A DNA stretch of 64,000 nt from Eledone cirrhosa. Lineage: Eukaryota. The DNA is taken from NCBI GenBank assembly GCA_964016885.1, contig OZ024741.1, forward strand, positions 394,134,001 through 394,198,000, given 5' to 3'. Positions 5,578 to 10,678 of this stretch are shown here, one piece after another (position 1 is the stretch's first letter; every line of letters begins with the position of its first letter). The notes under the pieces were generated by a model. It did not search any database. It saw nothing but the letters and a program-made list of their open reading frames with translations, and had not been told where the DNA came from. The translations under genes were made by a program, and so were the position numbers.

Positions 5578-6153
5578 TAAATTGAAATAAAATGAAAACG
5601 AAATTTCATTTCTCACTCTTAGTATGGCACTTACTTAAATGTAAGTATGCATGTATACGTAAATACATATATGTATACAGACGTACAGTAGCACGCATAT
5701 ATATATATATATATATATATATATATATATATATATATATATATATATATATATATATATATATATATACATATATACATATATATGCATACAGGTACAC
5801 ATACATATATGCACGTATCAGTTTAGCGGACGCTTATTATAACGCCGCTTTGTTCGTTTGTAAACAAACTGAACGGCCTGAATTTATGCCATACGGTGTT
5901 AAGGCAACCACGTCATCTTTTTGTTCAACACTGACACAGGAACGATGTACTAGTTTCAAGCTTGTTAGCTATCATCAGCACCGTTTACCCATCTGCCAGA
6001 TAGTTGAACGTTCGAAAGTATATACTTTCCTTATGAAAATTAACGGCTGAGCAGCCTAATTTGCATATTGAGGGAGTTAAATCGGGCAGGCATACCGAAA
6101 CGATAAATTGAAATAAAATGAAAACGAAATTTCATTTCTCACTCTTAGTATGG
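5578..6153 (-). mobile_element. Hammerhead-bearing repeat unit with ~50-bp terminal direct repeat (candidate retrozyme or Penelope-derived element)
   Basis: 5578-5628 repeated at 6104-6153; 5640-6080 homologous to 10262-10600; contains a hammerhead motif. Confidence 0.55.
5941..5985 (-). ncRNA. Minimal type I hammerhead ribozyme
   Basis: AACGGUG-CUGAUGA-U-AGCU-AACA-AGCU-U-GAAA-CUAG-UA-CAUCGUU: intact core, 7-bp stem I, palindromic stem III, GUA cleavage site. Confidence 0.8.
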
Positions 6154-6246
6154 GTAATAGGAACGAGTAGGACCCCGACGGCTAAGTTCAAGCCGTCGAA
6201 ACGGCTTGAGCTTAGCCGTCGGGGTCCTACTCGTTCCTATTACCCA
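6151..6246. repeat. Near-perfect 96-bp palindrome (46-bp arms, CGAA loop)
   Basis: Arms are reverse complements with one mismatch. Confidence 0.95.
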
Positions 6247-6593
6247 CTCTACTACCCTAAGTATTGAGTACTCTGGTGTGTTATGGTCCACCTGGTTCCT
6301 TACCACATTTCCTTCGTTACATATATATATATATTCAAACATATACACACACACATATATACATGTATACATATATGCATATATGCATATATACATATAT
6401 ACATATATACATGCATATACATGCACACACACACACACACACACACACACACACACACACACACACACACACACACACACACACACACACACACACACAC
6501 ACACACACACACACACACACACACACACATATATATATATATATATATATATATATATATATATATATATACACACACTTATATTAACAATTA

Positions 6594-8432
6594 ACGGTGC
6601 TGCGATCGAATATTGCTTTTTAGCCCAGCCAATGATCTAAGATGTCTGGCACAGAGTTGGCACCCAAAACATTCACTGGCAACAGCCGGCTGTGGTTGGA
6701 TTTCATGTACTTTGCATGTTGTTTGAGCCCTCCTGCTGATCTACACTCTCTTCCACATGCTTCACAGGTATGATCAGCAGCATCTCCCACAGCAGCCTGG
6801 TAGGCAACCACTGGTCTCACTTTATGACTGCGAAGATGACTTTCGAGTCCAGCTTTGCTGAGGCAGAGTCTCGCACAGACGCTGCATGTCAGCATCATAG
6901 GAGGACCTTCGCTGTCTGGAAATGCAACACCTAGCCCTTTCGTCGCATCCCTTTTTACTTTCTCGCATGCAATTCGAGATGTTTCAAAGGCAACTTTCCC
7001 CTCATGTACTGTCTTTCTCCATTTATTACGATCAGCAGCTACGCTTTCCCATGTATCAGCAGAGATGTTAGCGTCTTTCAAGGGAGGCTTTCAACGAATC
7101 CTTATACCTCTTTTTTGGTTTATGTGGAGGTCGTTTGCCTTTAACTAATTCTCCATAAAATAGTTGTTTCGGCATTCTAGAATCCTTCATCCTGGGAAGG
7201 TGACCCCTCCATCGGAGTCTTTGCTTAAGCACTAGAGCAACTATACCTTCACACAGAGAGCTTTCCAAAATCTCAACATCACTGATGTGGTCCCTCCAGT
7301 GAACGCCATGGATCTGTCTGAGACACATTTGATGGAAACGCTCCAATTGTTTAAGGTGGTGTCGATATGTGACCCAGGTCTCGCAGGCATAAGGAAGAGA
7401 AGAGAGCACATATGACTTGTACACCTTTACCTTTGTCTTCTTGCATATGTGTTGCCGACCCCAGAGGCGTCTTTCTAGCTTTCCGAAAGCATCACTTGCT
7501 TTCCTAATCCTGGGTGGAATTTCAATATGCAGATTGCTGTATCGATTGACAGTGCTTCCCAGGTAGACAAACTGATCAACCACTCCAAGTCGTTTACCAT
7601 ACACATAGATATTTGGTTCACTGTACTGTTTACCTGGGGCAGGTTGGTACATGACGACGGTTTTCTTGAGACTGACGGTCAATCCTAGGGCAGTGCAAGC
7701 ATCAGAAAATGTATTCAAAATGTGCTGCATATGAATCTCTGTGTGCGCTACAAGATCCCAATCATCTGCATACAAGAGGTCTCTTATGATAGAGGTAAAT
7801 ACTTTTCATTTTTCAGCAATACTTTTCATGTGGCAAACAGGCTCGGTGCTGGAATATCCCCCTGTTTCACTCCATTTTTCACTGAGATAGGCTCCGACAT
7901 GTTACCTATGACATTAACCCAAGCCTTCATGTCGTCATGGAAAGAGCTAACCAAAGCAAGGAACTGATCAGGGCAACCAAGTTTTTGGAGAACCTTCTAC
8001 AATGCATTTCTGTTAACAGTATCGAAATCTTTTGTCAGATCGACAAGAACTTGATGACGATCCAAACCTTGTTCCATGCAAACCTTGGAGCTGTCTAGCT
8101 GAGAAGATCATATCAGTAGTGTCGCGTCCAGCATGAAAACCAGATTGACTTTCAGGAAGGACATAATCTGCAATGTGTGTCAGCAGACGGTCCAGAAACA
8201 CCCAACATAAATGTTTTTCTACGACAGAAAGCAATGATATACCCTGTAGTTTCCACAATCATTCTTGTTAAGCTTTCCCTTGTACAAGACTACCATTACT
8301 GTATCTCTCCAATCCTCAGGTACGGATTCACTAGCCCATATACTGCCAAACAAAGAGTGATGTCGCAGAAGTATCTCACCACCATATTGTAAGAGCTCTG
8401 CTTGTATGCCATCCATACATGGAAACTTTCCA
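6594..8432 (-). mobile_element. RTE-clade LINE, 5'-truncated, degenerate
   Basis: LPESQSGFHAGR, YADDWDLVAH, YLGS, RMPKQLFYGEL, C-terminal C2H2 fingers; 5' junction in (CATA)n. Confidence 0.9.
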
Positions 8433-8519
8433 CATACATACATACATACATACATACATACATACATACATACATACATACATACATATTAACACATTAA
8501 AAGCTACAGCAATGTAGAA

Positions 8520-8760
8520 GATATAGATATACATAATATGAAAGTGTACTGGTGGAATGTTCCACTTCAATAAAATGCAGGCAAAACAGACCAGATATAA
8601 TGATATGGGACAGGGAAACGAAAGGCATGCACAGTAGTGGAAGTTAGCTGCACAGCAGATGCCAATATAATATTAAAGAACAGCGAAAAGGAGAATATTT
8701 ATGCAGAACTAATGAGAAATCTACAGATACTCCATCCTGACTATACCTTCAGACTTATAT
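8520..8760 (+). mobile_element. Diverged RLE-LINE endonuclease fragment
   Basis: Reads NRPDIMIWD..VVEVSC..D, as in R4/Dong elements. Confidence 0.55.
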
Positions 8761-8900
8761 GCATGCATGCAAACATGCTTACATATCTACCTAGTTGATG
8801 TTGTGTAAATTCCAATGAGAGAGTCTTGTGTCTATGTTAGAAACCGACTCTCTCTCTATTGGTAACATTTTGTGAAATTATAAAACCAGAACATACATAT

Positions 8901-9290
8901 ATTGAAAACGTGCTGTGTTGGAGAGATCAGCTGCCCACTTGATGTCAACGTTGTAAGAAAATTACAGGAGGAGGACATCTACAGATCATTGATGAAGAGT
9001 ATGAAGATCCAGTATCCAAGATACACCTTCAGCTTCATACCCATCATTATTGGGGATACAGGTTATATACCAGCCCACTTGACCAAAGTATCACTGAACT
9101 TGGCTTTGTGGACGAAGAGCGCAGCTCCCTAATTCATTGACTACAAATCGTTGCGATAGCTGGCACCTTCAAAATTTGCAAAACATTCTTGCTATTCAAT
9201 GGATGACAATTTCTTCTCTTTTACAACCTTGCCACCAGGAAGGTGGCCAGTCAAACATGTACTCAAAATGAAGACAAAGAGAAACGTTCT
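8901..9290 (+). mobile_element. Dong-CATA family 3' fragment
   Basis: Matches 27064-27457; (CATA)-type repeats on both sides. Confidence 0.85.
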
Positions 9291-9339
9291 ACATAAATAC
9301 ATACATGCATACAGACATGCATACATATATACATACATA

Positions 9340-9950
9340 CATGGTGGCTGCCAAATCGTTTTCGAGTACGGCCACTACTTTATATCCATGTAGGAGAACC
9401 CCTACCGATGCGCTGAACAAGTCTGACTTTTTAGTCCAGCCAGCGACTTGAAAACTCTGGTACAAACACTACACTTGTAACAATTATTGACACATAGTGC
9501 TGGGCCCATGGTACCATGTGATGACAAGTGCAGAGAGATCTCCAGATATAAAGCAATGCCTGTGCTGTGAAGCTTTTATAGTGAGCAAAGGCACTGCACA
9601 AAGCCAGTCCCACCCTCTTAACAAAGATGATATTTACCAAAAAGAAGAACAAGTCAACATCATTGGATACCATCAGAGTTGCAGGTGTTATATTAGAGTT
9701 TTCCTTCTCCTAGAATTCTGCCTTGACAAAGGCTAAGTGGTCATCCCTCCCGGTGATTTTGGATGGCCATTGACTCTTAAGACCTCCTTTGCCATTTGAC
9801 AGGTTTTGTTTTTAGTCCTCCAGGATGTCCAAAGTCACCCTCCTCACCAAGAAACCTTGGTGGGGTTGCCAGTTTAGTCGCCAACGACCCGGCCATGAGA
9901 CAGGTTGTACTGGGATACATGTTACCAGTAGCACCAACTGGTGTCCTGAC
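9340..9950 (-). mobile_element. Non-autonomous RTE-dependent element family A, full copy 1 (~610 bp)
   Basis: 3' ~185 bp matches RTE 31619-31803; TATG/TA tail. Confidence 0.85.
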
Positions 9951-10465
9951 ATATATATATATATACATACATATATATATACATATATATATATACATAT
10001 ATATATACATATACATATACATACATAAATATATACATACATATATATATATATATACATATATATATATATATATATATACATATATATATATATACAT
10101 ACACATATATATATACATACATATATATATACATACATATATATGTAGATACATATATATATATATACATATATATACATATACATACATATATATATAT
10201 ATATATATATACATACATTTATATATATACATACGCATATATATACATACATATATATATATAAGTATGTACACGTACATACATGTATGTATACAGACGT
10301 ACAGTAGTATGTATATATATATATACATACATGCACACATATATATGTACGTATGGATTCACCGAAAATTTATTATAATGCTCGGTGTGTTTGTAAACAA
10401 ACATCCCGTATTAAGCCGTAGTGTCCAGCAACCATCGTTGCTCGTTTGTTCAACACTGACAAAGA

Positions 10466-10508
10466 ACGCTGTACTAGTTTCAAGCTTATTAGCTATCGTC
10501 AGCAACGT
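10466..10508 (-). ncRNA. Minimal type I hammerhead ribozyme (paralogue of 5941-5985)
   Basis: ACGUUG-CUGACGA-U-AGCU-AAUA-AGCU-U-GAAA-CUAG-UA-CAGCGU; stem I has U-G where the other copy has G-U. Confidence 0.8.
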
Positions 10509-10678
10509 ATATCTTCCTGCCAGATTGTTGAACGTATATACTTACCTTATGCATATTAACGGCTGAGTAGCCCAATTTGCATATCGAGTGGGTTAATTTC
10601 GTTTCATTTATTCCGTTTATATATATATACATACATATATATATATATACATATATATATATACATACATATATACAT

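Follow-up and report, generated by a model that had tools for sequence, protein, structure and literature searches.

Two sister families of hammerhead-bearing repeats in Eledone cirrhosa: probable retrozymes with insertion ends resembling those of Penelope-like elements

How a small repeat without a reading frame is transcribed, and which enzyme copies it into new sites, is the question raised by a stretch of the Eledone cirrhosa genome in which two diverged copies of such a repeat each hold a hammerhead ribozyme motif. The stretch, hereafter the window, comprises 64,000 nucleotides (GenBank assembly GCA_964016885.1, contig OZ024741.1, positions 394,134,001 to 394,198,000 of the forward strand) and is numbered from its first letter. 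For animal retrozymes, both transcription and the inserting enzyme are open questions in the literature cited here. Copies 1 and 2 belong to two sister families, A and B respectively, of tandem non-coding units. We consider it rather probable that these are families of non-LTR retrozymes (LTR, long terminal repeat), with a promoter inside the unit, cut by the hammerhead, probably circularised, and copied by a Penelope-like element (PLE) into (TA)n. A preliminary description of the window had already proposed a non-autonomous repeat with a hammerhead, akin to the non-LTR retrozymes, and this proposal is supported by the arrays, the thousands of dispersed copies and the TA-joined 3' ends reported below. 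The two-site ends of Penelope type, and the place of the octamer within an snRNA-type promoter block, had escaped that description.

The hammerhead motif and the repeat families

A complete type I hammerhead motif is found in both copies on the minus strand, where the ribozyme strand reads stem I, CUGANGA, stem II, GAAA, palindromic ACUAGU, A and stem I again (coordinates in Table 1). A strict descriptor, requiring the core, a stem I of at least 6 bp and a stem II of at least 4 bp, matches the window only at copies 1 and 2, against a mean of 0.0 matches in 100 dinucleotide shuffles (none in any of them), which bears out the earlier claim of a complete hammerhead in both. The predicted cut positions on the minus strand agree with those first given, and the differences between the copies that had been listed (U or C at N7, loop II, and a G-U to U-G change in stem I) are real. 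What had been overlooked is the seventh pair of stem I: copy 1 has A-U there and copy 2 has U-U, so that this pair is lost in B. Compared by eye between A and B, helix I shows the changes G-U to U-G, U-G to A-U, G-U to A-U and A-U to G-U, with pairing kept in all of them.

The preliminary description had set the hammerhead beside minimal type I motifs, and this comparison does not stand, since folding predicts that helix I runs on for about 17 bp past a 3-nt bulge in both copies. With a helix I of 6-7 bp plus this predicted extension, a helix II of 4 bp and a palindromic helix III of 1-2 bp, the motif fits the canonical metazoan type I hammerhead as described in PMC4209133. The minimal PLE-type hammerhead of the same source, with reduced helices and a non-canonical helix I/II layout, was considered and does not agree with the helix sizes found here. 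Following that description, the weak palindromic helix III should call for a dimer. The suggested Rfam search of the window left the hammerhead undetected both at the gathering cut-off and at E<=10, where the matches are TA-repeat and hairpin artefacts. Folding of the circular monomers gave z scores of -9.1 and -4.1, which are set aside as support because they are inflated by the self-complementary TA tract.

The units of family A measure 466-590 bp, a length that varies in its arrays with an internal TA tract, and those of family B about 420 bp. All 40 scored matches of copy 1 are 97-100% identical and lie mostly in head-to-tail arrays, and the 40 scored matches of copy 2 (98-100%) recur at a spacing of about 420 bp, so that the proposed search for tandem arrays was successful for both families. 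In arrays of 6 or more, units close on themselves with nothing in between. Across the 3.0-Gb genome there are 9,740 exact matches to a 38-mer of the A promoter, 4,401 matches to the octamer-to-core pattern at B-like spacing (the more distant family C included) and 2,567 exact matches to the B end followed by TA, with 0 matches for the control in each case. The units have a GC content of 0.36-0.38, and the copies are crossed by low-complexity frames only. No layout of an LTR retrotransposon is seen, the ends falling instead at the two fixed sites described below; no specific search for a primer-binding site or polypurine tract was made.

Conservation between A and B is concentrated in two parts of the unit. 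Identical positions amount to 43/49 in the promoter block, 40/45 in the ribozyme and 17/19 in the helix extension, compared with 92/157 elsewhere (Fisher p=6e-8), or 88% in the ribozyme and upstream block versus 59% in the rest; the promoter block taken alone gives p=1e-4. This comparison between families is the only one used, as conservation by region within families was dropped on account of biased copy selection. The hammerhead core is intact in 95/100 A units and 34/36 B units, both sets being selected with bias.

Insertion ends, RNA template and a candidate donor

The arms mapped in 90 loci gave 108 distinct 3' ends, 85 of which fall at two fixed sites about 60 nt apart, termed E1 (35 ends) and E2 (50 ends); 10 are ambiguous, falling in the internal TA tract, and 13 lie elsewhere. 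TA follows in 73/85 of the ends at E1 or E2, in agreement with the insertion into TA repeats that had been proposed, and the 5' ends of the arms are scattered. Many arms stand back to back. In 19 of 36 such pairs both ends lie at E1 or E2, and these comprise 18 pairs of E1 with E2 and a single pair of E2 with E2 (p=2e-5). The same bias is seen in 90 B arms picked solely by their E2 end (a set that includes the near-duplicates L227/L228): a script detected an inverted B partner for 45 of them, ending at E1 in 38, at E2 in 0 and elsewhere in 7, and missed about 7 further inverted partners visible by eye. Arms that stop at fixed 3' sites, are truncated at scattered 5' points and have inverted partners bear the hallmarks of target-primed reverse transcription. 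Moreover, two adjacent 3' ends combined with 5' truncation and an inverted partner arm are, in our analysis, the two-start-site signature of Penelope. PLE insertions are described as having an inverted 5'-truncated copy, an optional tail and a bias to (TA)n (PMC8557442), and a PLE protein in vitro starts reverse transcription from two adjacent internal sites and extends both target strands (PMC11167929).

The two copies in the window can be read in these terms. Copy 1 consists of one arm, 1.1 units long and ending at E2, and this length accounts for the direct repeat of 50-51 bp (100% identical) that bounds it; the earlier view of a monomer plus partial unit is borne out, the exact composition being one 526-bp unit and 50 bp. 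Copy 2 is a back-to-back pair, made of an E1 arm and a 24-bp E2 stub. Its E1 end abuts a TA-rich tract (9951-10263), and the stub adjoins (TA)n at 10618-10680. The limits first given, 5640-6080 and 10262-10600, located both copies but had to be corrected to about 5579-6153 and 10264-10618. The TA targets are the outer tracts, the TA-rich tract inside copy 1 being part of the unit.

As regards the RNA template, 59 of the 90 B arms reach at least 300 nt and 48 of these 59 hold an intact hammerhead core, the arms having been copied straight through the cut site with no stop. The 5' end lies within 5 nt of the cut site in just 3/90 arms, and 5' ends do not pile up at the cut site or at the predicted transcription start (3 and 2 of 90 arms, respectively). 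The long arms and the rarity of 5' ends at the cut site imply that the template was neither a cut linear monomer nor a terminated-and-cut transcript. It was a circle or an uncut multimer, both of which fit these data.

A lead on the donor of the enzyme comes from the 43 B arms for which the script detected no B partner (2 more ran off their loci), 5 of which are fused back to back to other TA-ended repeats. Two of these fusions, L255 and L207, involve one and the same partner family; the B arm ends at E2 in each, and the partner at the first of its own sites, with 14 non-TA bases ahead of the TA in L207. The ends of this partner family that are joined to TA fall at two sites some 66 nt from each other (9 and 6 of 15 loci), and its copy at L300 contains a 585-amino-acid frame with YRDD, CxCx5C, CxxC and CxH motifs, features that are given, together with (TA)n insertion, for Hydra-clade PLEs (PMC8557442, section 11). 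Since the family is abundant, a pair of junctions with it is a lead and no proof.

A second PLE family (L150, L004) has a frame with a C-terminal GIY-YIG domain (Pfam match) and a CxxxxCxxC linker, motifs by which we take it to be Neptune-like. Its 3' end contains a small motif resembling a hammerhead, and its two ends are separated by about 60 nt. The endonuclease regions of the two PLE families gave no significant match when compared with each other by BLASTP. The A and B units have no similarity to 16 loci of these two families (best E 0.52, in a search that was not exhaustive), and 43 upstream flanks of units share no common extension. The preliminary description had noted that the retrozyme label would fall if the unit mapped to the terminal repeat of an autonomous Penelope; no such correspondence was found for the two families examined.

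The promoter-like block

The octamer ATGCAAAT is located on the ribozyme strand at 6059-6066 and 10575-10582. That it is kept in both copies had been recognised correctly, and its distance to the core, first put at about 70 bp, is 80 and 72 nt. The block that contains it was compared with the upstream DNA of the U6, U6atac, U1, U2 and RNase P genes of the Eledone cirrhosa genome. An octamer-like box at -76 to -78, together with a TATA at -30, is common to three promoters of U6 and one of U6atac. The nine U1/U2 promoters are without the octamer box and have a TCAG box at -56 to -58, followed in 8/9 by a TATA-like site 23-28 nt beyond it, and the TCAG box of RNase P lies at -66.

The U6-box matrix was built from 4 U6/U6atac loci that resemble true genes and were chosen for having the box. 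The loci inspected numbered 9 + 18 and yielded 4 distinct box-bearing promoters, a selection that favours the box; L067 and L073 have an insertion in the promoter, the box-less loci were set aside as likely retrocopies, and L064/L076 are a near-duplicate pair from the same array. On this matrix the units score 17.3 (A), 13.6 (B) and 14.0 (C), compared with 13.7-16.6 for the four host promoters left out in turn. The score of A is reached at 0/205,566 background positions, and the background frequencies for A to C range from 0 to 1.5e-5. The TCAG-to-TATATA distance of the units, 26-27 nt, lies inside the host U1/U2 range, and family C is the best match to the U1/U2 box. Both spacings place the predicted start at an A inside helix I, at about 5994 and 10510. 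As the matrix comes from four box-selected promoters and A and B are related, these data speak for resemblance to a promoter and for conservation, and not for function.

To judge by its sequence, the unit block resembles a hybrid of the host U6-type octamer box, a U1/U2-like box and a TATA. Compared with a U6-type (type 3 RNA polymerase III, Pol III) promoter, the units have the host U6 box, and their box-to-TATA spacing departs from that of the host U6 genes (values below). T4 runs are absent from the transcribed body, and their avoidance is not significant, 367 and 89 of 1000 shuffles being likewise without one. The families are likely a variant of non-LTR retrozyme with an internal promoter of the small nuclear RNA (snRNA) type, as reported for newt satellite 2. 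Internal promoters of hammerhead repeats are reported to be snRNA-type and used by RNA polymerase II (Pol II) in that satellite and used by Pol III in a schistosome repeat (PMC2220036, PMC6765202).

Some side observations concern promoters of this kind. The host snRNA promoters form two classes, one with the octamer box (U6, U6atac) and one with the TCAG box (U1, U2, RNase P) (L061-L063, L081-L111, L133-L135, L141), and in both classes a TATA-like site is present, as is a pyrimidine-rich box farther out, near -250 to -290. L067 and L073 are U6 genes of a tandem array on C19 that have a SINE-like insertion of about 160 bp, with a short duplication, between TATA and start. In family C (L190, L193; G000:C1) the unit and its hammerhead are different, and the layout of octamer, TCAG and TATA in front of them is the same.

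Proposed life cycle, rival explanations and neighbouring repeats

In the life cycle that we favour, the snRNA-type promoter of a unit would fire near the start of helix I and read through into the next units, a step we regard as reasonably likely, with Pol II very slightly preferred to Pol III. Neighbouring hammerheads would quite probably pair through the palindromic helix III and cut, and a host ligase might then, by a modest balance of likelihood, close the monomer into a circle. A Penelope-type protein very probably nicks both strands of the TA repeat and starts reverse transcription at E1 and E2, giving one or two arms that may exceed one unit. The leading candidate for its donor is the Hydra-clade element found fused to family B, a choice that falls a little short of even confidence. 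Taken to its most specific form, the proposal describes a self-transcribing RNA-circle parasite with a hybrid U6 and U1/U2 promoter, which would cut itself into a circle and be copied, from two fixed start sites, by the protein of a sequence-unrelated Hydra-clade Penelope onto both strands of a TA break; this full combination is doubtful. If true, mixed insertions with one parasite arm and one donor-RNA arm would name the enzyme.

A number of observations weigh against the retrozyme reading and its parts. Not counted among them are the 0 reads on A and B in one RNA run that was not shown to be from Eledone cirrhosa. The octamer-to-TATA distance is 42-43 nt in the units versus 46-48 nt in host U6 genes, the TCAG box, strong in C, scores a weak 4.5 in A and 6.1 in B, and the T-runs near E2 would halt Pol III ahead of the next promoter. 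In the ribozyme, a U-U replaces the usual G10.1-C11.1 pair, helix III has only 1-2 bp, part of the core mispairs in a minimum-energy fold that is 1.4-2.1 kcal/mol better than the open core, and the short motif folds no better than shuffled sequences (z -1.0 and +0.15). Similar axolotl motifs cut just 6% and 22% in 1 h as monomers (PMC7229834), and hammerhead cleavage is dispensable for PLE insertion in vitro (PMC11167929). Copying from a circle should make arms pile up at one unit length; such a pile-up was seen among the first 30 arms (9/18, in a length range picked post hoc) and was not significant in the next 60 (9/41, p=0.14). As for the donor, Pfam and PDB gave no match for the 585-amino-acid protein, so that its assignment to the Hydra clade rests on motifs, and the link consists of 2/43 junctions with a very abundant family, 3 others joining other TA-ended repeats.

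Several of these points would suit the same element moved by the same Penelope-type enzyme if the template were an uncut multimeric transcript, with a hammerhead that cuts rarely or trims, and no circles. Passage of the arms through the cut site fits uncut RNA as well as circles, the ribozyme appears weak, the unit-length pile-up was not replicated, and unprocessed RNA is the main PLE substrate in vitro (PMC11167929). We nevertheless find this alternative unlikely, given that the ribozyme and its long helix I are kept across families with pair-preserving changes, that the long arms so often hold an intact core and that the retrozymes of coral, mussel and axolotl yield abundant circles (PMC7229834).

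The ends of the units behave exactly like PLE ends, and Xenopus retrozymes are homologous to the pseudo-LTRs (pLTRs) of PLEs (bioRxiv 10.64898/2026.07.22.740005); the unit could accordingly be imagined as the pLTR of an autonomous element unseen here, amplified as truncated ends. The closure of units on themselves in arrays, the 43 flanks without a common extension and, within the limits of that sample, the lack of similarity to the two PLE families make this improbable. Spread at the DNA level as an ordinary satellite, with ribozyme and promoter as relics, would account for the long near-identical A arrays (units differ by 0.012 inside an array and by 0.033 from one array to another, the set having been chosen for its identity), and such arrays may indeed have grown by unequal crossing-over. 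As a means of dispersal, however, the satellite explanation is largely refuted by the pattern of the ends, fixed at 3' and scattered at 5', and by the inverted partners, and the concentration of conservation in ribozyme and promoter also opposes it; we consider it very improbable.

The retrozyme reading finds its nearest parallels in the retrozymes of coral, Mytilus and axolotl (Rtz331/Rtz353), which are likewise short, low-GC, non-coding tandem units with one type I hammerhead each, range from monomers to multimers and coexist with PLEs (PMC7229834). The single-pair helix III with palindromic loop recalls axolotl HHR_Amex1, and the U-U at the base of helix II recalls HHR_Amex2. The units described here are longer (420-590 bp with an internal TA tract, versus 170-400 nt reported and 150-450 bp cited in the same article), and the parts of that article used here describe, for those retrozymes, no ends at two fixed sites, no arms in inverted pairs, no targeting of (TA)n and no promoter within the unit. 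For the A and B units the comparison is made on genomic DNA. For vertebrate retrozymes, mobilisation by PLE machinery has also been proposed, on the evidence of co-occurrence and pLTR homology (bioRxiv 10.64898/2026.07.22.740005); here the evidence is the insertion footprint, and pLTR homology was not found. The available text of that preprint mentions neither a promoter nor molluscs. The Hydra and Neptune PLEs and the anole Poseidon PAc (PMC8557442, PMC11167929) share with the units 5' truncation, an inverted partner, (TA)n targets, an optional tail between two reverse-transcription start sites and a hammerhead near the end, and differ from them in that the units have no reading frame, a tail of about 60 nt instead of 30-40 and a closed, tandem organisation. 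Newt satellite 2 and Schistosoma Sm-alpha are hammerhead repeats with an internal promoter, as proposed here (PMC2220036, PMC6765202); the block of A and B, with its U6-type octamer, U1/U2-like box and TATA, is likened to the newt promoter by description only.

The retrozyme class, and an internal snRNA-type promoter in one of its members, are already known. No description of a cephalopod retrozyme was found in the literature consulted, and the supplements of PMC7229834 and of the 2026 preprint may list one. In the sources available, the proposal that PLEs mobilise retrozymes draws only on co-occurrence and homology; in this genome, an insertion footprint is preserved in thousands of copies, and it matches the two-start-site PLE chemistry shown in vitro. 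Furthermore, mixed insertions point to a specific donor protein and the conserved promoter-like block offers exact bases for mutation, and the proposed retrozyme life cycle becomes open to direct experiment.

Table 1. Features of the two repeat copies and their immediate surroundings in the window
Feature	Position	Strand	Basis or details
(TA)n target adjoining copy 1 at its 3' end	5551..5579	.	TRF, end mapping (L001)
50-bp direct repeat, terminal copy, with a T-rich stretch and E2	5577..5627	-	second copy at 6104-6153
Copy 1 (family A), a 526-bp unit and a further 50 bp	5579..6153	-	3' end at E2 (~5579), 5' truncated at 6153
Fixed site E1, unused in copy 1, ~60 nt before E2	5639..5649	-	
TA-rich tract inside the unit, length differing between units	5697..5786	.	
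Type I hammerhead of copy 1 with predicted extended helix I	5923..6009	-	descriptor, folding
Parts of the copy 1 hammerhead	5978..5947	-	core 5978-5972; stem II 5971-5958 (U-U at base); GAAA at 5957; palindromic helix III 5954-5949; predicted cut after A at 5948 (5948/5947)
Candidate snRNA-type promoter, copy 1	6019..6067	-	U6-like octamer box 6067-6055, TCAG 6050-6047, TATATA 6024-6019
Neighbouring repeat H, with an inverted arm (6152-6196) and a direct arm (6197-6320) that ends in TA	6152..6320	+	
Copy 2 main arm, family B, ~0.8 unit	10264..10597	-	3' end at E1 (L031)
Type I hammerhead of copy 2	10448..10533	-	core 10502-10496; GAAA at 10481; predicted cut after A at 10472 (10472/10471)
Candidate promoter, copy 2	10535..10583	-	octamer 10582-10575, TCAG 10566-10563, TATATA 10540-10535
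Copy 2 second, inverted arm: 24-bp stub ending at E2	10595..10618	+	L031 = E1+E2 pair

Repeat H, which joins the 5' end of copy 1 directly with 3 bases shared, is very abundant (1,379 first-look candidates; loci L142-L171) and nearly always reduced to 130-200 bp. Its TA-joined ends fall at two sites spaced by about 80 nt, and inverted arms are common and give long hairpins; GAAA followed by a paired stem is present, and CUGANGA is absent from the copies read. Retrocopies of U6 and U6atac (L131, L074, L122, L123, L137) adjoin TA tracts and elements of the H type. At L131, U6 is fused without a gap to an inverted arm of this type, the two overlapping in a short stretch, as though the U6 RNA had been copied by the same enzyme.

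A looser hammerhead-like motif of another family, detected with a relaxed descriptor only, lies beside a TA tract at 15193-15242 on the plus strand. LINE copies at 31910-34258 and 24987-27373 (minus strand) contain long frames for reverse transcriptase and a restriction-like endonuclease and have microsatellite ends, and the TA tract that holds copy 2 sits between fragments of such LINE-type repeats. Finally, a 410-amino-acid single-exon frame at 59896-61128 (minus strand) has an N-terminal hydrophobic stretch and resembles a Golgi glycosyltransferase; it is the sole clear host-like gene among the long frames of the window.

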